This document shows positions 1-16,429 of a stretch of 64,000 bases of DNA, one piece after another. How positions within the stretch are numbered: position 1 is the stretch's first letter; the number at the start of each line of letters is the position of its first letter. The notes under the pieces are model-generated. The model made no database searches. It saw nothing but the letters and a program-made list of their open reading frames with translations, and had not been told where the DNA came from. The DNA comes from an uncultured delta proteobacterium (lineage in GTDB: Bacteria; Myxococcota; Myxococcia; Myxococcales; Myxococcaceae), in contig CAVZMH010000019.1 of the NCBI GenBank assembly GCA_963776345.1, forward strand, positions 1-64,000, written 5' to 3'. Position numbers and translations under genes: made by a program.

Positions 1-77
1 TTGATTATGCGTTGTGGTGAAGCAGTGATAGAATTGGGGGAGCGGAGACGGTAGTTATTTCTGGCGGAGAGGTAGAT

Positions 78-1585
78 ATGCTAGAGCATATCAAGGTATC
101 AAACATCAAAGGACTCAAAGAGTGTACTCTCTCAGGGTTAGGTAAGATAAACGTAATTTGTGGCAAGAACAACAGCGGGAAATCAACCCTTTTAGAGGGA
201 ATCAATTCTCCCAGTTGTGTGGGCTATGGGAAAAAGTTAGATATTGGAGTGGCCCAGACCATTTACCATGCCTCTCTAATTCACATGGGTTGGAAGCAGC
301 GGCCAGATATGGATGCGAGGTATTTCGATTTATTAGCGGCGCCACTTGAGCCAGACAAGATTTGGTATTCAAGCGAGGCATTATCCTTTGTGAATGCTAT
401 CGAGGAAAAGTTCGACGAAGACCGCGAACTTGGCGCATGGGCCTTTTCTAGGCCAGCATTACGAGCAAAGCCTACGAGTCTTTGTTTCCAGAGAAGTACG
501 AGATTGTATTACTGCCTCCCAAGAGAAGCCTCAATCTGTATCATACGATCCAAGCAAATGAAGAAATTACTCCTCAGGGATTGGGGATACTCAACTATCT
601 ATTCTACGCTAAGAATCAGAGGGAAGGCTCGGACGACAGAATAGTATACAACGCTGTCAGTGATGCGTTTACCAAGATCTCATCCGGTTACAGGTTTGAT
701 ATTTTTCTGGAACAGAGCAACCACCTAAGGCTGAATTTTTCCTACGACGACACTCCTTGGATAAATGCGGCAGATTGCGGGTTAGGCCTTCAGGATCTGT
801 TAGTCATATTATATTTCTCCTTGCATCCAAAATATGACGTGATACTCATTGAAGAGCCGGAAAGTCACTTGCACCCCGATATGCAGCGTAAACTATTGTA
901 TTTCCTTAGAGAAGAAACATCCAAGCATCGACAATTCTTCTTGACCACTCATTCCAATGTCTTCCTGAGCAGTTCTCTAGTAGACAAGATGTTTTTGACG
1001 TATTTCGACGAATCTGTGAGAGTCAGCGATGCCACGAGCAAGGCACAAATTCTCAATGAAATAGGCTATTCGGTAACTGACAATTTGGTTTCTGATTTGA
1101 TCGTTTTGGTAGAAGGGCCGACCGATAAACCGGTGCTCGAAGAATTCTTGCTCAAGTTGGGATTAATCGGTTTGTATGACATCAAAATCTGGCCGCTGGG
1201 CGGCGATATCATGGGGCAATTAGATTTGTCGACCTTCGGACAAAATCACGAGATCATAGCACTGGTTGACAATGACCCGAAAAGTGACAGAGTCAGGAAG
1301 GAGTTTGTCGAAAACTGTCAGAGATACAACATCAGAGTGCATCGCCTGAATAGGTACTCAATAGAGAACTATTTCTCGTTGACTGCTTTGAGAAAAGTGT
1401 TTGGCTCTCAAATTCCACTGTCTGTTACTGATATTGACCCCAATATCAGGCTCGAAAATCAGATTGGTATAGATGTGAAGAAGAACAACAGGAAAATAGC
1501 CAAGAACATGGTTCTAGAAGAGATAGATGGCACTGATCTTTTTGATTTCCTCAAGCAAGTGGAAGCATCGTGCAAGAAAGCGTGA
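78..1585 (+). CDS. OLD-family ATP-dependent nuclease (ABC-type ATPase + TOPRIM), one apparent frameshift near 465-480
   Basis: ORF 78-644 starts with Walker A (GKNNSGKST). ORF 482-1585 has a signature-like CGLGLQ, Walker B/D-loop ILIEEPESHLHP, H-loop LTTHS and TOPRIM VLVEGPTD...DND. The two frames join into one ~500 aa gene. AT-richer than its neighbours. Confidence 0.85.
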
Positions 1586-1638
1586 CGTAGCTAACAATGC
1601 TAAGAAGTATATCAAACCGGATGGTTTTGAGTCAAATC

Positions 1639-1724
1639 ATGCCCATCCGCCTCGATGCTGAATGCAATGAACCCGCCGTGCTGTTTGATTTTGCGGGAAG
1701 TTTTATCGGCAAGTGCTTGTTGGA
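1639..1724 (+). pseudogene. Diverged duplicate of the 5' end of the downstream methyltransferase gene
   Basis: Encodes MPIRLDAECNEPAVLFDFAGSFIGKCLLD versus MPIRLDPERNEPAALFDLAESFTGKRVLE at 2347; the nucleotide similarity is visible. Confidence 0.8.
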
Positions 1725-1739
1725 TCGGGAGGAATTTGG

Positions 1740-1815
1740 ACCACGAAACGCGCGAACGAAACGAAAGACACGAAAGGCTTTCGCGCCTTTCGTGAGGTTT
1801 CGTGACATTCGTGAT
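1740..1815. repeat. CGAA/TTCG ~9-nt periodic imperfect palindromic repeat (left flank of GxxExxY)
   Basis: accacgaaacgcgcgaacgaaacgaaagacacgaaag is followed by the complementary tttcgcgcctttcgtgaggtttcgtgacattcgtg. Confidence 0.75.
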
Positions 1816-1856
1816 CCAAATTCTTATCGCATGGAATTGTAATCAGGTATATAGCC

Positions 1857-2291
1857 ATGCCGGGCTCATACTCGACCCAAGGACATGATTTCAGATCCAC
1901 ATCTTACAAAACCCTTGGCGCGTGTATTTACGTTCAGAAACAGTTGGGTGTTCACTGCATGGAAGTGGATTATCAACGCGCATTAGAGTTAGCATTGCCC
2001 AAATACGGCCTGCGGTTTGAGCGCGAGGTGGAAATCCCCATTGCCTACTATGGCGTGGTCGTCACCAAACGCCGAGTGGATTTTGTGATCTGGGACGCAG
2101 CAGACGAGTCCGATGAATTGTTGCTGGAAACCAAAGCTCGAAGCACTATTTTGCCCGAAGATATTGAGCAGTGTTTGCTTTACCTGCACCAGGGCAGCTA
2201 TCAAATCTGCTTGCTGGTCAACTTTGGAGAAAAACCTTTGGGCATGAAACGACTGGTTCATACGCCGCCCGGCCAACAGCCGATCAAGTGA
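1857..2291 (+). CDS. GxxExxY protein (PD-(D/E)xK nuclease-like)
   Basis: LGVHCMEVDYQRAL, EREVEIPIAY, RVDFVI...LLETKA and LLVNFG are family hallmarks. Confidence 0.9.
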   Translation: MPGSYSTQGHDFRSTSYKTLGACIYVQKQLGVHCMEVDYQRALELALPKYGLRFEREVEIPIAYYGVVVTKRRVDFVIWDAADESDELLLETKARSTILPEDIEQCLLYLHQGSYQICLLVNFGEKPLGMKRLVHTPPGQQPIK

Positions 2292-2298
2292 TCGTCAT

Positions 2299-2335
2299 CT
2301 TTCGTGCTTTTCGTGCTCTTTCGCGAGGTTCGTGA
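2299..2335. repeat. TTCG periodic repeat (right flank of GxxExxY)
   Basis: ctttcgtgcttttcgtgctctttcgcgaggttcgtga has the same unit as 1779-1815. Confidence 0.75.
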
Positions 2336-2346
2336 TTCAAATACCT

Positions 2347-3094
2347 ATGCCCATCCGACTCGACCCTGAACGCAACGAACCCGCCGCGCTGTTTGACTTG
2401 GCCGAAAGCTTTACGGGCAAGCGCGTGCTGGAAATCGGCTGCGGCGATGGCCGCCTGACGTGGCGGTTTGCCGATCAGGCCGCACGCGTCGTCGCGCATT
2501 GACCCGGATGCCGAGGACGTTGCGCTGGCGATTCAGGCTTGCCCGCCGCATCTGCGCGAGCGCGTCCAGTTCCACGTGGGCACGATTCAAGAATTCGAGT
2601 CGTCCGAGAGATTTGACCTGGCGCTCCTTTCGTGGTCGCTCTGATGAATGGAACCGGCGGGCATGGTGCATGCCCTTGAGAAAATCCACGAGCTCTTGGA
2701 GCCGGACGGCAGATTGATTGATATTCACCCATCGGGCGAGCCGCCGCCGATCGAGGTCCGCGTCGGACAGCAGGTGACGGTCGTCGGCTGGATGAAAGAA
2801 ACAGATGACTTTGTCGAGTACGCTCAGGCCAGCGCCGCGTTGTCTGAGGCGATTGAGCGCGGGTGGTTAGACGTCGAACGGAAAGGCATGTTTGAATTTG
2901 TCACGCACGCCGATTCGATATTCTGACCTGCGCGAGTACTTGGCAAAAGAATGGAAAGATGCCATACTTGATGCGGCGGTTGCGGCAAAGGCGGAGGAAT
3001 TGTTGGCGCGCCGGAACACGACAAAGAGTTGATCGTGCGCGAGCAAGTCCGCATCGCGCGATTGAGACGTGGAGACATGCATGGATCTACTTGA
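2347..3094 (+). CDS. Class I SAM-dependent methyltransferase with in-frame TGA-TGA (2642-2647), candidate selenoprotein; also apparent sequencing frameshifts near 2497, 2920 and 3010
   Basis: Motif I VLEIGCGDGRLT, then IDPD, then FDLALLSWSL-TGA-TGA-MEPAGMVHALEKIHELLEPDGRL (post-motif II/III), all in one frame from 2498. Confidence 0.75.
2659..2675 (+). promoter_or_regulatory. Putative bacterial SECIS hairpin
   Basis: Perfect stem GGGCAT/ATGCCC with loop GGTGC. The first loop G lies 17-20 nt after the two TGA codons. Confidence 0.55.
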
Positions 3095-4148
3095 GCTTGG
3101 AATATCGCTGCTGCACGCGCGGGCAACAAGGCCGAAGCCCGCATGTATCTTGAAGCTGTCACCATGGCTGAACCGGACAATGCGCAGGCGTTTCTCTGGC
3201 TCAGCTTTGTGCTGGAGGACCCCAAGCTCTCGCTGCGCTGCCTGGAGCGCGTGCTGGCCATTGACCCGGATAACGAACAGGCCAAACGCGGCGTGGCCTG
3301 GCTTCGGTCGCAAAAGGGCGACAAGGCCGCGCCGCTCCCACCGCTGCTCTCGGATGCCGAGTTTACCCAGCTCGTTCGGTTGCTCAAGCATCCTCAGGAG
3401 CCGGTCGTCGTCAAGGCCGTGCGTTATCTCGGACAGGCGGGCGGCGCGCGCGCCGTCGAGCCGCTCTTGAGCTTGCTGATGTCCACCAAGAGCAAAGCAC
3501 TTCAGGCTGAGGCGCGGACGGCGCTCATCGCCATCGGCACGCCCTCAGTTGACCCGGTGCTGCAGCGGCTGTTGAATGAATCCAACCTGGACCTGGCCGG
3601 TCAACTGGCGGCGATCCTGGCGCGCGTCCGCTCGATGGCGGCGCTGGCAGCCTGCCGGGATGTCGATGGATCATGCCCGGCATCCCTCCACGCGGTACGC
3701 GATGGTGCTCAACCTGACCGCTTCCGTGCACGGCGAGCCTGCGCTGGGCATCGTGCGCGATTACTTGTTTGACTCCAGCCAGGACATGCGCGCCCGCACG
3801 GCGATCGTGATGGCGATGGGTCAGGCGATCAAGGGCAAGTCAACGGATGCCAGTCAAGGCATCGGCTTTCTGATGGACATTCATACGGAACTGGCCTGGC
3901 CCGTTGCCCTGCGGCAGGCCGCGCTGATCGCCCTCGGCATCTCCAGCCAGCCTTCCGTCTTGCGCTATCTCTTTGAAGCGATAGGCGATAAAGACCCGCA
4001 AATGCGTGTCGCCGCTGTAGATGCGCTGGCTCGTTTCACGCCGCCACAGACGGCGGCATTGGACAAGCTGGCGCATAGCCCGGATGCCGTGGTGCGCAAG
4101 CGCGCCAATCAGATCCTCGACGCGCTTCAGGCCGCTCAAAAGAAATAG
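3081..4148 (+). CDS. TPR + HEAT-repeat protein (frameshifted near 3120 and 3665)
   Basis: EPDNAQAFLWLS...CLERVLAIDPDNEQAKRG TPR, followed by HEAT repeats (LGQAGGARAVEPLL, DKDPQMRVAAVDAL). Confidence 0.75.
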
Positions 4149-4149
4149 A

Positions 4150-4176
4150 CCTTTGAGGCTTCCCAAACCTCAAGGG
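4150..4176. terminator. Hairpin directly after the stop codon (terminator or REP-like)
   Basis: cctttgagg-cttcccaaa-cctcaaggg inverted repeat. Confidence 0.5.
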
Positions 4177-4439
4177 CCTCTCCAATGATGAGAGCGACGA
4201 TGACGCTCCGCGCCGACCGCAAAAAGCGCAGCGTCACGCTCAACATAAGGACCGAAGGAGTCGCGCGATTCAAAGAAAGCTGGTGGCAGTTTCGGATGTG
4301 TCGTCGGGAATTTCAAGCGCGGCGATTTGGACAAGATGCGTGCGGGCTATGATGCACTGCGGCAGATCAATCCGCCGAGCTACTCGGAGGCCCACGTCAA
4401 GCAGACGCGTGATCAAGGTGTGATTTGAGGAGAGTGTAG

Positions 4440-4778
4440 ATGGAGAACCCTCTGGTGATCGCGCTCACGGTCAGCGGCGTCGGGCTGCTGATACTTTTTG
4501 GGGCGCTGGCTTTTCTCTATGGTCTGATGTATGCGATGACGGCCATCATCCGGGATCGGCCCGATGTGAAGGAAAAGATGCCCGTGCACGTCGTCGAGGC
4601 TGATGGAAAGCCGGCGCACGTCATGCAAAAGGTGGCAGTTGTGGCCGTCGCTCTGGCGCGAGCAGAACTGGAATCAAGCCTGGCCCGCTCGCCGGAAGCG
4701 GAGGTCGGCCTCAGCCCGTGGGGGCAATATCACCGTCACCGCCTGTTGGGCATGAATCCGCGCGCAAGGATAGGCTGA
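4440..4778 (+). CDS. Na+-translocating decarboxylase gamma/delta subunit (OadG family)
   Basis: N-terminal TM helix, VAVVAVALA segment and SPW motif; lies upstream of the biotin carrier and beta subunit. Confidence 0.75.
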   Translation: MENPLVIALTVSGVGLLILFGALAFLYGLMYAMTAIIRDRPDVKEKMPVHVVEADGKPAHVMQKVAVVAVALARAELESSLARSPEAEVGLSPWGQYHRHRLLGMNPRARIG

Positions 4779-5204
4779 TGAAGCACTACCGTATCACTCT
4801 TGAGGGCCATACATACGATGTGGAGGTGCTGGACGATCCGCGCCAGCGCCAGGTGAGAGTTCGGGTGGACGGCGAGGTTTTGACGGTGGAAGCAGAAGCG
4901 GCATTGGATGTTGGAGGAGATGTCACCTTCTGCGCCAGTCTCATCGGCTGCATCGCCGCCGGTTGCTCCGGCGGGCGCTGCGGCCGGCGTTGTCAAGGCC
5001 CCGCTGCCGGGCGTGATCAAGTCCATCGCCGTGAGTCCTGGCGAGCGAGTTGCGGCTGGCGATGAGCTGCTCGTCATCGAGGCGATGAAGATGAACAACG
5101 TTATCCGCGCCCCGCGCGGAGGGACGGTGAGTCTCATCTACGTCAGCGAGGGCCGGCAGGTGCCTCACGGCGAGCCGTTGCTGCGCCTCCAGGAGGAGCC
5201 GTGA
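4778..5204 (+). CDS. Biotin carboxyl carrier protein of the decarboxylase (frameshift near 4905)
   Basis: MKHYRITLEGHTYDVEV N-terminus, Ala/Pro linker, VKAPLPG...IEAMKMNN biotinylation motif. Confidence 0.9.
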
Positions 5205-6349
5205 GCGGCTTGGGCTCGAACCAGCTTGCGGGAGGCCTCTTGACGATCACCTGGCAACAGTTGGTGATGGTGTTCGTGGGCGGCCTATTGATGTATCTGG
5301 CCATTGCCAAACAGTATGAGCCGACGCTTTTGTTGCCTATAGGCTTTGGTTGCATGCTGGGCAACCTGCCCGTCTCCGCCTACATGATTGGACCGGAGGG
5401 ACTGTTCGGCATTCTAAAGCGGGCCGGGATTGACACCGAACTGTTCCCGCTTCTGATTTTCCTGGGCGTGGGCGCCATGATGGACATGCGCCCGCTTCTG
5501 AGCCAGCCCATCTTTATCCTGATGGGGGCGTTAGGCCACTTGGGAATCTTTGGCGCGCTGATCGCCGCCGTTCTCTTGGGCTTTAACCTGGCCGAGGCAA
5601 CCAGCATTGGCGTCATCGGCGCAATTGACGGGCCGACGGTGATCTTTGTCGGAGCCAAGTTGGAACACTTTTTCAATACACCCGGGCTGGCAGCGGCCGT
5701 GGCCGTCACGGCTTACTCGTATATGAGCCTGGTACCTATTATCCAGCCGCCGCTGATGCGGCTGTTGACGACCCGGCGCGAGCGGGCCATCCGAATGGAG
5801 TACACGCCCCGGCCTGTTTCCAAGACCGCGGTGATCCTCTTTCCCATCTTGGTGACGCTGCTGGCGGGTGTATTCTTGCCGCAGGCTGCCCCGCTCGTCG
5901 CCACCCTGATGCTGGGCAACTTGCTGCGAGAATCAGGCGTCGTGGAAGGTCTCAGCCGCACGGCGCAGGAAGCGATCACAAACACTGCTACTCTCTTTCT
6001 GGGCTTGACCATCGGCTCGACGATGCAGGGAGCGGCCTTTTTGAGCGCCGGCACCCTCAAAGTCTTGTTGTTGGGATTGGTAGCATTTGCCCTCGATACC
6101 ATCGGCGGCCTCCTGTTTGGCAAGTTGATCTGCTGGCTTTCCGGGCAGCGGATCAACCCTCTGGTAGGAGCCGCTGCCATCAGTGCATTTCCCATGAGCG
6201 GACGACTGGCCCAAAAAGTAGCCTTGGAGGAGGACAACCAGAATTTCATTTTGATGCACGCCATTGGCGCCAACACTGCCGGGCAAGTGGCGTCGGTCAT
6301 CGCGGCCGGCGTGTTGATGGCGCTGATCTTTCCCTATATTCTGCGCTGA
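5201..6349 (+). CDS. oadB: Na+-translocating decarboxylase beta subunit
   Basis: YEPTLLLPIGFG, IGAIDGPT, AYSYMSLVPIIQPP, HAIGANTAGQ. Confidence 0.93.
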   Translation: MSGLGSNQLAGGLLTITWQQLVMVFVGGLLMYLAIAKQYEPTLLLPIGFGCMLGNLPVSAYMIGPEGLFGILKRAGIDTELFPLLIFLGVGAMMDMRPLLSQPIFILMGALGHLGIFGALIAAVLLGFNLAEATSIGVIGAIDGPTVIFVGAKLEHFFNTPGLAAAVAVTAYSYMSLVPIIQPPLMRLLTTRRERAIRMEYTPRPVSKTAVILFPILVTLLAGVFLPQAAPLVATLMLGNLLRESGVVEGLSRTAQEAITNTATLFLGLTIGSTMQGAAFLSAGTLKVLLLGLVAFALDTIGGLLFGKLICWLSGQRINPLVGAAAISAFPMSGRLAQKVALEEDNQNFILMHAIGANTAGQVASVIAAGVLMALIFPYILR

Positions 6350-6377
6350 GCGTTCGAGCGGCGATCAAAGGAGGTGT

Positions 6378-6430
6378 ATGTCTGGGCAAATCGGCTCGGT
6401 CATCGGCGGCGTGTTGCTGGCACTGGTTGA
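6378..6430 (+). pseudogene. Remnant C-terminus of a second beta-subunit paralog
   Basis: SGQIGSVIGGVLLALV matches the OadB end AGQVASVIAAGVLMALI. Confidence 0.5.
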
Positions 6431-6453
6431 GCGTGCAGGGTGGCGGCGCACTG

Positions 6454-7808
6454 ATGAAGATTGCGATTATTGGCGCGGCAGGTGTGCGGACGCCCTGATC
6501 GTGCAGGCGATTCAGCGACGTCATGCGGCTGGCCGCCTGGATTTGACACGAGCTGGCGTTGATGGACATGGATGCCGAGCGACTTGACTTGATCGGCGCA
6601 CTGACTGGCGCCGCTGGAGCAGAGCGCAGGTTTTCGCATCACGCGAACGACGGATGCGGCTGCGGCATTGAGTTCGGCCGACTATGTCATCACTACGTTC
6701 CGCGTGGGCGGGATCGAGTCGCGCGTGGTGGACGAGCGCGTGCCCCTGGCGCACGGCCTTCTGGGGCAAGAGACGACCGGGCCGGGCGGCTTTGCGATGG
6801 CGATGCGCACGATCCCGGTGCTGCTCGACTATATCGCACTCATGCGCAAGCTTTGCCCGAATGCTTGGCTGATCAACTTTGCCAATCCTGCCGGACTGTT
6901 GACCGAAGCGATTGTCCGCGTGGCGAAATGGGACCGAGCCGTCGGCATTTGCGATTCGCCGCGCAACTTGCTCATCGCCGCCACGGCGCTTGGCCTGCCA
7001 CCCGACGAGGTCTACCTGGATTATTTCGGCCTGAATCATTTGGGCTGGGCGCGGTCGGTCGTTCACGGCAACCGGGATGTCTTGCCGCAGTTCATCGAAC
7101 TGATGCGGCGCTCGAATCAGCCGTGGCCGGGCTTGCCTTTCGATCCCGAATTCATCTCAGCGCTTGGGCTTGCTGCCGAACGAGTACCTCTACTACTATT
7201 ATCATGCCGATCAGGCCGTGCGAAACATTCTACAAAGCCGGGCAGAGTCGAGGCGAGCAGATCGCCGCACTGAACGCCCAATTGTTTGCCGACTTGCGGC
7301 GGCGAAAGGCGCAAGGCGATCTCGACGGAATGCTTGCGGCATACCGGACCTATCTTGGCGAGCGCGGCGGATCGTATATGGTGGCCGAGACGGGCGGGGG
7401 CATCATCGTGCATCCGAGCCGGCAGACGACGAAGGTTATGCAGGCGTCGCGCTCGATCTGATCGAGGCGCTTTCCGGCGCACTACCCAGGACGATGATCC
7501 TCAACGTGCCGAATCGCGGAGCGATGAGCGCAATGGCCCGCGATGACGTGGTCGAGATTCCGGCCTTGTGTCGCGGGATTCGATTCGACCGCTGGCCGTG
7601 GGCGACGTGCCGGATCACTGCCTCGGGCTGATCAAGCAGGTCAAGGCTTTTGAGCGGCTCACGATTGCGGCGGCTGTGGCAGGCTCGTACTCTCAAGCGG
7701 TCGCGGCGCTGACGGTGCATCCTCTGGTGCGTGACCATGCCAAGGCCAAGTCCATCGTCGACGAATACTGCGAGCAACATGGCGCCGTCTTTCCCAGTGT
7801 TGAGCTAG
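6454..7808 (+). CDS. GH4 glycoside hydrolase (6-phospho-beta-glucosidase-like), multiple frameshifts
   Basis: MKIAIIGAAGVRTP, GQETTGPGG, NFANP, GICD, GLNH, NVPNRGA and ALTVHPLV are spread over several frames. Confidence 0.88.
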
Positions 7809-7822
7809 CGGAGTCTGTGCTC

Positions 7823-8752
7823 ATGACTCATCCTTACGATGTCATTGTCATCGGCGATTATTTTATTGACCTGGTCTTTGGCGGCTTGCCCCGGTTTCCC
7901 GAACTGGGCGTCGAGATCATCGGCACGGACTTTGAGATGATCCCGGGCGGCGCGTACAACAGCGCGCTGGCGATGCACCGGCTTGGACTCAAGGTGGGTT
8001 GGGCGTGCGATTTTGGAACGGATGACTTTTCGCGTTTTGTGTTGGAACGAGCGCGGTCGGATGGGTTGGACGATTCACTCTTTGTGTGCCACGCTCAACC
8101 GTTGCGGCGTATCACGGTGTCGGCTTCGTATCCAGAGGATCGAGCGTTCATCACGTATTGCGATCCTGATCCGTCGGCCCCGGCTGTGCTACAAGCTTTG
8201 GCGACTGACCTCGGCGCGCGTCGTGTACATTGCAGGCTTCTACGAGGGACCGACGTTCGAGTGCATTGTGCAAGCGGTGCGCGCTCGTCAGATGAAGCTG
8301 GTCATGGACGGCAATTCGAGTTGCGAGGTTCAACTGGCAAGCCCTCCGGTGCGCGAGGCCATTTGCGGCGTGGATGTGTTCATGCCCAACGCAGCCGAAG
8401 CGCGGCGCATCACCGGTCAGGCCGATCTCGGCCGGGCGATGGAGGTGCTGGGCGAGCTCTGTCCGCTGGTGGTGATCAAAGATGGCGCTGCGAGGCGCGT
8501 ATGCCGGCACCCGCTCGCGTGTGACACCACGCGCCGGCCATCCGGTCACGCCCGTGGATACGACCGGTGCCGGTGATTGCTTCAACGCTGGATTCCTGGC
8601 GGCATGGCTCGATGGCTTGCCGTTAGACAGAGTGTTTGCGCTGGGGCAACGTCGTGGGCGGGCTTTCGACCTTGTCGCCCGGCGGCACAGGGCGAGCCGT
8701 CACCCGGTCGGATGTTGAAGCGTGGCTGCGGCCGAAGATGGCGTCAATCTAG
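7823..8752 (+). CDS. PfkB-family carbohydrate kinase, frameshifted
   Basis: VIGDYFIDL, PGGAYN, FMPNAAEA, VDTTGAGDCFNAGF. Confidence 0.9.
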
Positions 8753-8801
8753 TCCGCCCGCTGCAAAGGTCGCCGTTACAAAAAATCTTGAAAGGAAAAG
8801 T

Positions 8802-10338
8802 ATGGAACCGAAATTTGTCGACTCAAAACCCGCCTGGCTGAAATTCACGACTTGAATAAAATCGGCCAACTGCTGAGTTGGGATCAGCAGACGCATGATG
8901 ACGCCCGGTGGAGCCGCGGTGCGCGCCGAGCAGCGCTCTACGCTGGGCCGCCTGTCGCACGAGAAATTCACCGTCGGATGAAATCGGGCGCTTGCTGGAG
9001 ACCTGCGGCCTTACGAGGCGAGCCTGCCTTATGATTCCGACGAGGCCAGCCTGATTCGGGTGGCGCGCAAGGATTACGAAAAGGCGCGGCGCGTGCCCGA
9101 CCGACCTGCAGGCGGAGATGACTCGCACCGGCGGCGCTGGCGCATGAACGTGTGGGTCGAGGCGCGCAAGACATCAAGACTATACACTCTTTTTGCCGCA
9201 CCTGCAAAAGACGATTGAGCTGAAGCATCAAGTACGTCGAGTGCTTTGCGCCGTACGAGACACGTCTATGATCCGTCTGCTCGACGACTTTGAGCGTGGG
9301 ATGAAGACGCCGCAAGTCAAGCACGTCTTTGACGACCTCAAGCGCGACCTGATCCCGTTCATGGCGGCCATCGCCGAGCGCGGCGACGTGGTAAGCGATG
9401 CGTGTCTGCACGGGTATTTCCCGGCGGACAAGCAGCGCGAGTTTTGCCTCAGCATCATCTCGCGCTTTGGCTTCAAGCCGGATTCGTGGCGGCTCGATCC
9501 GACGGTGCATCCCTTTGCCTCCAACACGTGCACCACGGACATTCGCATCACCACGCGCTATCACGAGGATTTCATCAACGCGGCGCTCTTTGGCTCGATG
9601 CACGAGTGCGGGCACGGGCTGTACGAGAACGGCGTGAGCCCGGCGCTGGAGCGCACGCTGCTGTGCCGGGGCGCGTCGTCGGCATGCACGAGTCGCAGAG
9701 CCGGATGTGGGAAAACTATGTCGGGCGCAGCCCTCATTCTGGAAGTACTTTTATCCTCGCCTGCAAGCGACCTCCCTGGGCAATTCGCCCGAGTGGACAT
9801 GGAGACGTTCTATCGCGCCGTCAACAAGGTGCAGCCTTCGCTCATCCGCGTCGAGGCGGACGAGGCCACGTATAACTATGCACATCATCCTACGCTTTGA
9901 GCTGGAGCAAGAGATCATGGAAGGCAAGTTGGCGTTGCGTGACTTGCCGAAGGCGTGGAACGCGCGCATGAAGGCTTACCTCGGTATTGACGTGCCGGAC
10001 GACGCGCATGGCATGCTTGCAGGACGTGTCACTGGTCGCAGGGCCTGCTCGGCTATTTCCCCACCTACTCGCTGGGCAACATCATCGCGGCGCAAATCTG
10101 GGAAAAGGCGCTGGCGGCAATCCCCGATCTGTACGAGCAGTTCGAGCGCGGCGAGTTCACGGCGTTGCGGGAGTGGCTGCGACAGAAACCTGCATCGCCA
10201 CGGGCGCAAGTTCACCCCGGTCGAGACACTTGGAAAAGGTCGTGGGTTCGCGTCCCCATCAGGGAAGGGCCGATCAACGTCGGGCCGTATGTGCGTTACC
10301 TCAAAAGCAAGCTCGGCGAAGTCTATGGTGTGAGTTGA
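8802..10338 (+). CDS. Carboxypeptidase M32 (Taq-like), multiple frameshifts
   Basis: LLSWDQQT, HPF, DIRITTRY, HECGHGLYE (HExxH), HESQSR, IRVEADE, GYFPTYSLG. Confidence 0.92.
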
Positions 10339-10395
10339 CGGTTCCGCTCACGGGTCCGCTTGCGGTGTGAAGTGAGCAAGCCGCCATGGTCAGCG

Positions 10396-11803
10396 TCAGG
10401 CCTCGTACAGCAAGTCCATGCACCAGTTCAAAATCTCTTGGACCATGTCGCGCATCTCGACCGCGCTCGCCAGCCCATAGATGGGCCCCAGCCCCTCGGG
10501 CGCGTCCGGGTGCTGCTTGACGTGCTCGATGGCGGCCTTCAAGTCTTCGATAAAGCGCTCCTTGACGCCGGGCTGGGTGTGCCGCAGCGTGAGGCAGATG
10601 TGGACGCTCGGCGGCAGGTGCAAGCCGTTCAAGCCCCAGTGCCGCTGCGACATAAATTCCGAGATCTTGTAGACGTTGAGCGTCTCGGATCGAAACGCAA
10701 TCAGAAACAGTGGGTCGCCGATGATCTTGATCTCTGGAATCTTGCGCATTTCTTGCTTGAGCCACGCCGTCGTTTCCAAAATGCGCCGCGCGGCTTCCAG
10801 GTAGCCTTGTTCGCCCATCGAAACCATGGCCGCCCAGCACGCCGCGCTCAACGCGCCCGGCCGGCTTCCGGCGAAGGTCGGCGAAAAGTAAATCCCACCC
10901 GGCCAATCGGCCACGGAGAAATACTGATAGTGCCGCAAGTCCGTGCCGCGATACAAGATCACCGACGTGCCCTTGGCCGCGTAACCGTACTTGTGTGTGT
11001 CCGCCGAAATCGAGGTCACGCCGGGCAAGCGAAAGTCGAACGGCGGGACGTTGTAGCCGAGCTTTTCCGCCCACGGCAACAGGAACCCGCCCAGGCAGGC
11101 ATCGGTGTGAAAGCCGCAGCCGTGTTGACGCGCCAACTCGGACAGCTCTTCAATCGGGTCAACGATGCCATGCGGGAACGGCGGGGCCGACCCGACGAGC
11201 GCGATGGTGTTCTCTGTCATCGCGGCCTTGGTCGCCGCCACATCGGCGCGCATGTCCGGGCCGACCGGAATGCGGATCGTCTTGATGCCAAAGTACTCGG
11301 CGGCTTTGTCGAACGCCGCGTGCGCCGTCGTCGGCGCAATGATCTCTGGCTGCGTGATGTGCTTCTTGTCCCGCGCCCAATCGCGATAGGTCTTCATCGC
11401 CAGCAGGATGCTTTCCGTCCCGCCCGATGACAGCGTGCCCACGATATTGTCGTCGGTCTTGTCCGCGCCCAACATGCCCGCCGTCATCGAAACAATCTCG
11501 GCCTCGTACTTGGTCGTGCTCGGCCACACGTCGGCGTGCAGCGGATTGCTTTGCGAGTTGATGGCGTACACGCGATTGAGAAAGTCCACGTGCGTGTCGT
11601 CGCCGTGATACACCCCGCCCGATACGTACCCGTCCTTCCATCGAGCTTTCTCGATGGCGCAGAGCTTCTCCATTTCGGCGAGGATGGCTTCCCGATCCAT
11701 CCCCGCTTCCGGCAGGCGCGAGAAACTGACGAAATCCTTCCTTGTAAGGCTTGAGCCATTTTTGCATATCGGCGGCCATTCCGTCCAACAGGTCGGCTTC
11801 CAT
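10396..11803 (-). CDS. PLP-dependent sphingosine-1-phosphate lyase-like enzyme (frameshift near 11730)
   Basis: [40 protein letters not shown] (PLP Lys), GSRPG. Confidence 0.9.
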
Positions 11804-11832
11804 GGATTCCTCCCAGGTGAGATGTTTGAGCG

Positions 11833-12585
11833 CTAGTGAGATCGGTTGAGCGTGTGATAGAGTCCGCGCAGCGAGCGATACACCTGCCGGTAGGCTGCGT
11901 ACAACTCGTCATAGGTGGCGCGCGGAGCAGGATCGGGCTTGACGACGTGACCGGCGGGCACGAGCGACTTGACAGACTCGATGTTGGGATAGAGGCCCAG
12001 CCCGACGGCCGCAATCAGCGCCGCGCCCACCGCCGAAGCTTCCTGCGGGTCCGGCACGCTTTCCAGCGTCCGGCCCGTCACGTCGGCGACGATTTGCAGC
12101 CACGGCAACCCGCGTGCGCCTCCGCCGATGACGCGCAGCGGGTCGGGTTTGAACCCGTACAGCTCGGCAATGTTTTCCAGAATCCAGCGCACGTTGTAAG
12201 CCACGCCTTCATAGATGGCGCGCGCCATCTGCGTGCGCGTGTGGTTCGATCCCAGGTTGATGAACGCAGCGCGCAGGCTCTCATCGGCCACGGGACAGCG
12301 CTCGCCGTACATCCACGGCGTAAAGATCAACCCGCCCGCGCCGGGCGCTGTGCCGGCAACGTCTTGGTCCATCCGCTGAAAAGTGGCCGAGTCTGCATCG
12401 GCGCAATACAACTCTTTGGCCGCCCACTTGACACACGCGCCGGCGGTTTCTGTTTCGGCGATGAGCAGCAGCTTGTTGGGGTCAGCCGATTGAATCGAGA
12501 CGATGCCGCGTTTGCCGTTTACACGCTTGCTGGAGGTGATGCCGACAAACCCCGAAGTCCCCAGGCAGACAAAGCCATCGGCATG
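11833..12585 (-). CDS. FGGY-family carbohydrate kinase (xylulokinase-like), C-terminal half only
   Basis: VCLGTSG, FTPWMYGERCP, RAIYEGVAY, VIGGGARG, SAVGAALIA. The N-terminus is replaced by spoVR sequence. Confidence 0.85.
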   Translation of the reverse strand, partial: HADGFVCLGTSGFVGITSSKRVNGKRGIVSIQSADPNKLLLIAETETAGACVKWAAKELYCADADSATFQRMDQDVAGTAPGAGGLIFTPWMYGERCPVADESLRAAFINLGSNHTRTQMARAIYEGVAYNVRWILENIAELYGFKPDPLRVIGGGARGLPWLQIVADVTGRTLESVPDPQEASAVGAALIAAVGLGLYPNIESVKSLVPAGHVVKPDPAPRATYDELYAAYRQVYRSLRGLYHTLNRSH

Positions 12586-13257
12586 CTTCTTCTTCGCCTT
12601 CTCGTCCTCGACCTTCTTCCGCTGCGACTCGAGGAACTCGAGGGGGTTCACGTAGCCGCGCATGTACTCGCGGTCGACCCGGAAGCCCTCCACCCGCTCG
12701 TTGCTCTTCTCCTCCTGCTCGGCCCGCTTGGGGTCCGGCGAGCGGCGGATGTAGGGCGAGTGGTAGTCGATCAGGTTCTCGAGACTCAGCGCCCGGTCGA
12801 TGAAGTCCTCGACCTTCTCGATGCCCACCTTGTCCACCCAGCGCCGGACGCGGGTGGCGTGGTTGGCCATCTCGTCCATCATCCGGCGGTTGGTGTGCTG
12901 GAAGTAGAAGTTGTTCTTGAAGAAGTCGCAGTGCCCGTAGACGTGGGCCATCACCAGCTTCTGGTCGACCTCTGCATTCGACTCGAGCAGGTACGCGTAG
13001 CAGGGCTCGTTGTTGATCACCAGCTCGTAGATCTTGGAGAGCCCGTACTCGTACCCTTTGCTGAGCTGCTCGTACTCCATGCCCCAGCGCCAGTGCGGGT
13101 AGCGGTTGGGGAAGCCGCCGTACGAGGCGACCATGTTCAGCTCGTCGTAGCCCAGCATCTCGAAGACGGTCTCGAAGAAGTCCAGCCCGAAGCCCCGGGC
13201 GTATCCCTCGATCTCCTCCTTCATCTGCGCCAGACGGGGCGTGAGGCTCTTCGGCAT
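12586..13257 (-). CDS. spoVR: SpoVR family protein, N-terminal ~224 aa, truncated at the junction
   Basis: YGGFPNRYPHWRWGMEY, KIYELVINNEPCYAYL, VMAHVYGHCDFFKNN. Confidence 0.9.
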
Positions 13258-14366
13258 CAGCGCCCCTTCCCGAGGAAGTCCTTGATCGACTGGTAGATCC
13301 CGTCCTTGTCGGCGATCTCCGAGAGCGCCACGTTCTCCGAGTCGCCTACCGTCTCCCGCAAGTCCTTGATGAACTGGCCCGAGCCGTAGGGGCTCTCCAC
13401 CTGCCCGTAGGCGAACTGGTTCACCGCCGGGAGGATGTCGGTCTTCAGCATCTCGATGCAGTGGCGGGTGTCGTCGGCGCTCCAGTTGTCCCCGTCGCTG
13501 AAGTGGAAGGGGTAGATGTTCCAGCTTCCGGGCGGGTAGTCGGCGCGGATGATGTCCCGGCAGAGCTTGTAGGCCGAGCTGATCATCGTCCCGCCGGACT
13601 CACGGGTGTGGAAGAAGGTCTCCCGGTCCACCTCGCGGGCCACAGCGTCGTGGATGATGTACCGGCACTCCAGCCCCTTGTACTGGTGCCGCAGCCAGGT
13701 ATCGAGCCAGAAGCTCTCGATGCGGACGATCTCCTTCTGCTCGTCGCCCATCGAGCCACTGACGTCCATCATGTAGACGATGACCGCGTTGGTCTCCGGC
13801 AGGTTCTGGAGCCGGTAGCTCCGGTACCTCCGGTCCTCCCGGGTGGGGACGATGATCGGCATCTTCGGGTCGTAGGTCCCGAGCGCGATCTGCCGCCGCA
13901 GCGCCTGCTTGAAGGTGCGCTTGAAGTGGCGCAGCGACTCGGGGCCGGTGGTGTTGACCCCGGTGTACTTGATCTTCTGCGCGACCACCTGCTCCTTGCC
14001 GCGCCGCTCGATGTTGGGGAGCTGCAGCTCCTCCCCGAGGATGCTGGCCAGCTCCTCGAGGCTGACGTCCACCTCCAGCGCGTGGTCTCCCTCGCCCTGG
14101 CCGGCCTTGTGCCCGTCGCCGGGCTGCACCGCCCCCGGGGAGAGCTGCTGGCCCACCTCGCCCTCGCCCTGACCGACGCCGCCTTGCTCCTTGTGGCCGT
14201 ACTTGAAGTGGGGGATGTCGATGAAGGGGATGGGGATGGAGATGGTGTCCTTCCCCTTCTTCCCCAGCATCTCGCCCTTCTGCACGTACCGGCGCAGGTT
14301 GGCTTTGATCTTCCCCCGGACGATCTGCTTGAAGCGCGAGTGGTCCTGATGGATCTTCAGCGACAC
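13257..14366 (-). CDS. yeaH: YeaH/YhbH (DUF444) vWA-like protein
   Basis: [37 protein letters not shown]; lies between prkA and spoVR. Confidence 0.92.
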
Positions 14367-14368
14367 CG

Positions 14369-16429
<2,061 letters not shown>

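Follow-up and report, generated by a model that had tools for sequence, protein, structure and literature searches.

Adjacent in-frame UGA codons above a single conserved hairpin in a bacterial methyltransferase family point to tandem selenocysteine

Results

A methyltransferase gene with two consecutive in-frame TGA codons

The stretch of DNA analysed here (the window, 64,000 nucleotides of a contig assigned to a myxobacterium) carries near its beginning a gene for a predicted class I SAM methyltransferase. In the frame that runs from 2498, the translation reads FDLALLSWSL, two stops and then MEPAGMVHALEKIHELLEPDGRL; the stops are the adjacent codons TGA 2642-2644 and TGA 2645-2647, within the DNA context TCG CTC TGA TGA ATG GAA. 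The features of the locus are as follows.

1..12583, no strand: foreign Anaerolineae-derived, indel-rich segment carrying the gene, with its junction to the myxobacterial contig at 12583/12584
2347..2497, plus strand: methyltransferase 5' part, with ATG, a DPExxE motif and SAM-binding motif I EIGCGDG
~2497, plus strand: one-base insertion ending the 5' part, not in relatives
2498..2641, plus strand: gene middle, β2-β4, ending FDLALLSWSL (frame from 2498)
2642..2644, plus strand: first in-frame TGA, predicted Sec (TGA in 87/106 and a Cys codon in 19/106 family loci)
2645..2647, plus strand: second in-frame TGA, predicted Sec (TGA in 88/106 and a Cys codon in 18/106 family loci)
2648..3094, plus strand: gene 3' part, comprising the helix after β4, β5-β7 and the C-terminal subdomain (stop TGA 3092-3094)
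2659..2675, plus strand: SECIS-type hairpin of 17 nt, with a 6-7 bp stem and loop G-GTN-C (bacterial SECIS model)

The initial annotation of this DNA had noted two TGAs in the frame from 2498 without a frameshift at the stops, and a stem GGGCAT/ATGCCC at 2659-2675 with a GG-led loop. Both observations were confirmed; the loop is GGTGC and lies 17 nt beyond one UGA and 20 nt beyond the other. The annotation had also taken 2347..3094 as one methyltransferase gene, which stands insofar as this is a single gene of the family described below, but not as one clean frame. Set against six close relatives, the window copy has an extra base at ~2497 (5/5 of the relatives covering it), another at ~2922 and a missing base at ~3006 (5/5 each), and its 5' start (2347-2497, with motif I) and a stretch near the 3' end lie in frames other than the one from 2498. 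Once these indels are allowed for, the gene has 248 codons, the same as its closest genome relative, L022. Its three indels mean that the window copy may be a pseudogene or derive from a faulty consensus.

A word-based search of public sequencing runs found none that contained half of the words. Relatives were present as 52 contigs from four public runs, and these contigs, which are not the source reads, listed no variant letter or indel at 2642-2647 over the interval 2600-2720. A single RNA run had a contig across the codon pair, which is no proof of expression.

The gene lies on a foreign segment at a chimeric contig end

The assembly has a G+C content of 72%, which fits a myxobacterium, against 44-62% over the initial 12 kb of the window. 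Positions 2343-10181 are collinear with the Anaerolineae MAG G001 (86-88% in long blocks) and 10401-12580 match it at 95%; from 12584 to 16000 the window matches three same-genus genomes at 95%. The junction at 12583/12584 creates a false fusion frame, half SpoVR and half FGGY kinase (11833-13257, minus strand), and no other part of SpoVR occurs in the assembly. In 1-12583, long frames account for 61% of the sequence, versus more than 99% in the remaining window, and the methyltransferase gene is missing from all 40 relatives of the assembly that were examined. By composition and alignment, the gene is Anaerolineae DNA, part of a 12.6-kb piece misjoined to the end of a myxobacterial contig, in a genome with ratings of 98% completeness and 0.01% contamination. 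Given this junction, findings in 1-12583 cannot be credited to this genome. The initial annotation had suggested looking for selenocysteine genes in the source genome, and selA, selB, selD and tRNA-Sec are indeed present there, but this check is misleading: since the gene sits on the foreign segment, and 0/40 relatives carry it, the assembly's own machinery is irrelevant to it, and we rejected it as support.

The segment holds several other features. A PDDEXK_3 (PD-(D/E)XK) gene at 1857-2291, with short repeat-rich tracts on its flanks, stands between the methyltransferase and a 79%-identical copy of its first ~100 bases at 1628-1724 (whole arrangement 1628-2432). The same arrangement recurs in G002 and is also listed at L023:2262-2744 and L108, and it resembles the outcome of an insertion event with duplication of the methyltransferase 5' end. 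At the contig end, 1-1585 (44% G+C) contains a frameshifted ATP-dependent nuclease-like gene with AAA_15/AAA_21 matches and a weak OLD-like TOPRIM match, which may be a defence gene or reflect DNA of a third origin. At 4440-6349, in the Anaerolineae part, genes for a small membrane protein, a biotin carrier and OAD_beta form a sodium-pumping decarboxylase module.

Each codon of the pair alternates between TGA and Cys

Homologues were gathered from genome contigs (6 loci), metagenomes (the best 80 of 266) and 401 sampled Anaerolineae genomes. The 114 aligned matches, in 110 loci, were reduced to 106 family rows by dropping four duplicates, three partial matches missing the site, and one row that was a neighbouring gene of another family. 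At the pair, these rows read TGA-TGA (UU) in 70 cases, TGA-TGY (UC) in 17, TGY-TGA (CU) in 18 and TGY-TGY (CC) in one, counts that overstate both the independence of the loci and the share of UU, since the query was itself UU and many loci are related. No TAA, TAG or other codon occurs at either place, as the initial annotation had proposed for relatives of a true selenoprotein gene.

The Anaerolineae sample yielded the gene in 22/401 genomes, at 24 places, and a phylum-wide sample of Chloroflexota in 27/401 genomes, at 30 places, making carriers ~5-7% of the sampled Chloroflexota genomes. Every copy in both samples has one or two TGAs and no other stop. Nineteen of the 23 new phylum-wide loci were typed, 17 of them by motif (11 UU, 5 UC, 1 CU) and two further ones as UC. 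Beyond Chloroflexota, there is a single putative case, a UU copy in 1/300 further genomes from the phylum of the assembly (L175, on a contig binned with a myxobacterial MAG). Protein clusters gave organism names for two proteins, both Anaerolineae. Some genomes hold two copies (G172:C7, G383:C16, G736, G665), lying within 5 kb of each other in two cases.

Protein databases mostly carry the two halves, in agreement with the annotation's remark that gene callers split the gene: among the best 150 representatives, 149 of which were scored, 76 are C-terminal halves, 49 N-terminal halves (125 halves in all) and 24 span the site. The halves stay in one frame, against the possibility, raised at the outset, that they occur as independent genes in variable frames. 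The full-length homologues with Cys that it had looked for exist: the 24 spanning proteins are CC in 20 cases, AC in two, CY in one and WW in one, and among the 120 listed of 639 near-length matches, 26 are full-length (24 CC, one WW, and one RQ, P0002). The homologues off the pattern are therefore RQ (once), AC (twice), CY (once) and WW (twice); the WW proteins may come from a table-4 gene call of UGA-UGA.

A FastTree phylogeny of 120 sequences, computed with the two sites masked, implies at least nine changes at position 1 and at least 16 at position 2, with intact one-chain Cys-Cys homologues interspersed; we claim no ancestral state from it, since the topology has in principle no root and UU sequences are over-represented among those sampled. 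Across these aligned genes, each codon position switches independently, and only between UGA and Cys codons.

This pattern bears on a reading in which the stops arise from pseudogene decay or errors in sequencing, or in which UGA encodes Trp or Gly throughout the genome. The location of the window copy in an indel-rich chimeric segment and the WW of two database proteins would fit it, but the same two codons occur in more than 100 independent assemblies at 31-79% identity, with Cys as the sole sense alternative at the DNA level. Moreover, TGA is the commonest terminal stop of the family (45/92 genes), so UGA is not reassigned genome-wide. For the family, the 106-locus codon counts, together with the conserved hairpin and the TGA terminal stops, refute this reading, to which we give next to no credence.

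A conserved hairpin follows the pair whenever either codon is UGA

The window hairpin, GGGCAT-GGTGC-ATGCCC, begins 11 nt after the second TGA and 14 nt after the first. Counted from the second codon, its core consists of six pairs, +12..+17 with +28..+23, and all six are formed in 68/69 UU, 16/17 UC and 16/18 CU rows, that is, in 100/104 UGA rows (one incomplete row left out). When the same peptides were re-encoded synonymously with the codon usage of the family, the full stem appeared on average in 8.7/104 rows and in 18 at most (1000 draws). The Cys-Cys locus L058 forms 2/6 pairs.

The stem also covaries in relatives, another expectation of the initial annotation. Compensatory pairs are seen at one position (GC in 88 rows, AT in 11) and at +16/+24 (A-T in 93, G-C in 10); in codon terms, Gly GGC goes with Ala GCC in 85 rows and Ser AGC with Ala GCT in 11/11. 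In a set of 30 hand-picked diverse rows, 4/6 pairs vary on both sides and the covariation score was reached by 0/500 shuffles, with slid controls all lower, although related rows inflate this score and the set includes L145 on the wrong strand (noise) and the CC locus L058. Distant members keep the stem with a rewritten peptide, such as ESVGDTL (L144) and DVVHVL (L175). Conversely, the hairpin peptide [GS][MV]V[HDN]AL is present in 101/104 UGA forms versus 3/40 Cys-Cys proteins; since it is kept in UGA forms and mostly lost in Cys-Cys proteins, it is constrained by the RNA and not by the protein. Judged from these alignments, a UGA at one position or the other suffices for the hairpin to persist, whereas Cys at both is accompanied by its decay. 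Codon pair and hairpin are conserved across the family, well past what chance would give.

PMC13188914 describes a bacterial SECIS model with a loop N-G-G/U-N-N placed 16-37 nt from the UGA. The bSECIS model takes a 3-9 nt loop with G in its first two places, a 4-16 bp stem, a distance of 16-37 nt from the UGA and an MFE of -7.5 or below, and the family hairpin falls within these ranges (-13.9 for the 3' region in the window). Its loop lies 17-18 nt from one codon and 20-21 nt from the other, so that the model fits from both. According to PMC8659212, E. coli fdhF has a hairpin of the same kind, 17 nt long and 11 nt after the UGA. The family hairpin also resembles those of two fdh genes from carrier genomes (L162, L163), where the stem starts from +10/+12 and the loop GGTCT lies at +19 after the UGA. 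The hairpin occupies an unchanged place in UC and in CU genes, so it serves either position on its own. One SECIS thus likely serves both codons, and for UU genes we infer that both UGAs are served in one pass.

The two halves form one methyltransferase fold

The AlphaFold model of the read-through protein (six-sequence alignment, U entered as C) reached a pLDDT of 92.6 and a pTM of 0.89, and displays one class I fold in which β1-β4 come from the 5' half and the other strands from the 3' half. The codon pair sits in a three-residue turn straight after β4 of this Rossmann methyltransferase fold. The model and sequence have the marks of the SAM methyltransferase class, namely a Rossmann-like fold, motif I E/DxGxGxG and an acidic residue after β2. 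Together with a Methyltransf_11 domain match that spans both stops in the window gene (22.4 bits, cut-off 21.2), this bears out the methyltransferase identity across the stops proposed initially. A structure search gave many methyltransferases tied at Z 16-18, without a clue to the substrate, and an ESM Atlas search (query P0003) returned generic methyltransferase clusters only.

An enzyme of two chains is conceivable, with Sec or a stop at the first UGA, termination at the second, and a nearby start from which the 3' half is translated separately. Databases do call two proteins, as the 125/149 halves among the best representatives illustrate, 114 of the 120 listed short matches end at the codon-pair site, and a possible start, ATG or GTG, directly follows the pair in 40/70 UU genes. 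However, the other 30/70 UU genes have no ATG, GTG or TTG there, two have no ATG or TTG within ten codons after the pair, and the alternative start sits inside the hairpin stem. Furthermore, TAA or TAG never replaces either UGA, CU genes need their second UGA to be read, and intact one-chain Cys-Cys homologues are interspersed on the tree. We therefore consider a two-chain enzyme very improbable, and retain the reading of a single chain made by read-through.

Selenocysteine machinery in carrier genomes

Among carriers, selA was found in 41/43 genomes (21/22 and 20/21 in the two sets) and tRNA-Sec in 21/22. In five named Anaerolineae/Chloroflexota MAGs, tRNA-Sec(UCA) is present in 5/5 and selA, selB and selD each in 4/5. 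However, selA also occurs in 71/80 non-carriers of the same class and 59/69 of the same phylum. Because Sec genes are near-universal in Chloroflexota, co-occurrence does not discriminate, and we rejected it as a statistical test for want of power. One MAG, G002 (L157, L161), has two selD and two selB genes, a duplication or bin contamination.

A further explanation accepts a read-through selenoprotein but assigns only one Sec to UGA-UGA genes, the other codon being read as Cys, by a UGA-reading tRNA-Cys or misacylated tRNA-Sec, or as a leak-through residue. Some bacteria do have a UGA-reading tRNA-Cys, and Cys functions at either position in many homologues. In the accessible parts of the literature searched, we found no description of one bacterial hairpin serving two codons. 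Against this, the UGA-Cys (17) and Cys-UGA (18) genes keep the hairpin in place, so that each position alone is SECIS-dependent; a gene needing Cys could use TGY, as 35 loci do; and a search for tRNA-Sec found one, with anticodon UCA, per genome. Insertion of a single Sec is in our view unlikely, and two Sec residues remain the preferred reading of UGA-UGA genes.

Comparison with known selenoproteins and methyltransferases

The family shares with E. coli fdhF-type selenoproteins a UGA aligned with the Cys of homologues, a 17-nt hairpin 11 nt after the UGA and a G-led loop. It differs from them in having two adjacent UGAs under one hairpin, natural UC, CU and CC variants, and no bulged stem U. 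With known Sec methyltransferases (NF008823, NF045649, NF047649 or MTase/UXPK-star, NF041536 or ArsM/DUF2284, and NF041537 or ArsM/AhpD) it shares a class I SAM fold with Sec. According to Table 1 of PMC13188914, single chains of some of these contain two or three Sec, their motifs are UxxG (NF008823) or CxxU (MduS, NF045649), and the 'UU' in two NCBIfam model names belongs with UxxG/CxxU motifs rather than with adjacent UU; in contrast, the pair of the present family is an adjacent UU after β4.

Against NCBIfam (June 2026), the family stays below the cut-off of every model; those for Sec methyltransferases give 23-30 bits where 263-575 are required. ArsM NF008823 gives 23.5 against 263, and its UxxG/CxxG motif C-terminal of β5 is absent from the family; the Sec fusions give 24.8-28.8 against 460-575. 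MduS NF045649 is likewise not matched (30 bits against 380; ~338 aa with CxxU, versus ~245 aa with UU). The best NCBIfam match is CpaM NF043040, at 58-75 bits against 180; where CpaM calls for a corrinoid-protein neighbourhood, the family genes have no conserved neighbour. UbiE/Methyltransf_11-like enzymes (CpaM, NodS, RebM, MitM, PEAMT) have the same fold (VIA Z 16-18) and motif I, but carry His, Tyr or Met at the two positions where the family has Cys or Sec.

Close pairs of chalcogen residues also exist in UxxU, UxxxxU and CU selenoproteins (Prx-like, NF041115, TsoB, SaoC, SaoL); unlike the present family, these have other folds, and none is listed with two directly adjacent Sec. The inventory of 119 families published in 2026 (PMC13188914), in the part available, has entries for UxxU, UxxxxU, CU and double selenoproteins, with adjacent UU not among them, and its Table 1 places CU vicinal pairs in the metal-handling SaoC, SaoL and HgcA. 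The accessible portion of deep-Sep names no methyltransferase. A full-text search found no bacterial tandem-Sec protein in the literature, although an earlier mention may exist. By its sequence features, the family would thus work like a bacterial SECIS-dependent selenoprotein, outside all named Sec-methyltransferase families. Its likely novelty, relative to the selenoproteins so far catalogued, is the placement of two adjacent Sec codons under one hairpin.

A predicted vicinal pair at the methyl-acceptor site

The residues aligned to the pair are SLHH in the non-member relative L176, ESIIH in MitM and Met-Tyr in PEAMT. In class I enzymes this position presumably lines the methyl-acceptor site, and vicinal Cys residues act as ligands for As(III) and Hg(II); a literature search found no paper on either point. 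The only conserved Cys columns of the family are the motif I Cys (95/120) and the pair itself. A Sec-Sec or Cys-Cys pair would replace, at the methyl-acceptor site, the His-His or Ile-His of ordinary relatives. A second, distantly related methyltransferase (L083:789-1478), directly after a UC family gene, has Cys-Cys at the same structural position (LDRVLCCFD).

There is no conserved gene neighbourhood: the largest clusters of shared neighbours comprise 6/106 loci and are clade-bound, and a Pfam scan of 129/209 candidate neighbour frames found no common theme. The substrate is consequently a guess, with two weak hints. ArsM-like genes lie within ~1.5 kb at 5/133 loci (L056:396-1175, L057, L084, L128, L058), scattered on the tree, and four of the five have an in-frame TGA of their own, in the context W(A/T)G-U-(V/I)AG or WFA-U-IAG, with SNG replacing the usual SNC. 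In a clade of six (L110, L114-L118), the gene stands between xdhC and yqeB (selenium-dependent molybdenum cofactor maturation). We tentatively favour a role in which the pair would clamp a soft metal or metalloid beside the SAM methyl, either as an As/Sb/Hg-type substrate or as a metal activating a thiol or selenol substrate. A vicinal redox switch is a less probable role, and a Sec acting as the methyl-accepting nucleophile seems less probable still.

Discussion

The evidence above is best explained by one class I SAM methyltransferase gene of ~245 codons in which both UGAs are likely read as Sec under the direction of a single hairpin. The initial annotation had envisaged one enzyme with Sec-Sec where homologues have Cys-Cys, and the alternation of UGA with Cys, the covarying hairpin and the intact Cys-Cys homologues support it; that both Sec residues occur in the same molecule is our inference.

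Bacterial Sec insertion is usually seen as one hairpin at a fixed distance from one UGA, working at low efficiency. In the mechanism that we propose, the first UGA would enter the A site with the stem 14 nt away, and SelB-Sec-tRNA would dock on the hairpin. The ribosome would then advance one codon with the stem still closed and now 11 nt away, the spacing of E. coli fdhF, and the same hairpin would deliver a second SelB-Sec-tRNA to the second UGA. We consider it rather more probable than otherwise that this is the first bacterial family with an encoded Sec-Sec dipeptide, in which one 17-nt SECIS loads SelB twice and the vicinal diselenol(ate) is a new methyltransferase site for soft metalloids or Se/S species.

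A UGA-UGA family that flips to Cys at each site makes SECIS spacing tolerance and SelB reloading directly testable, and its natural UU, UC, CU and CC forms are a ready series for the reach of bacterial SECIS elements and for what selenium gains over sulfur. Being compact, the hairpin could also be used to engineer Sec residues side by side. The family also suggests that search pipelines based on Cys/UGA pairs miss adjacent UGAs, and it adds to the selenoenzymes an unlisted family that databases store as two misnamed fragments.
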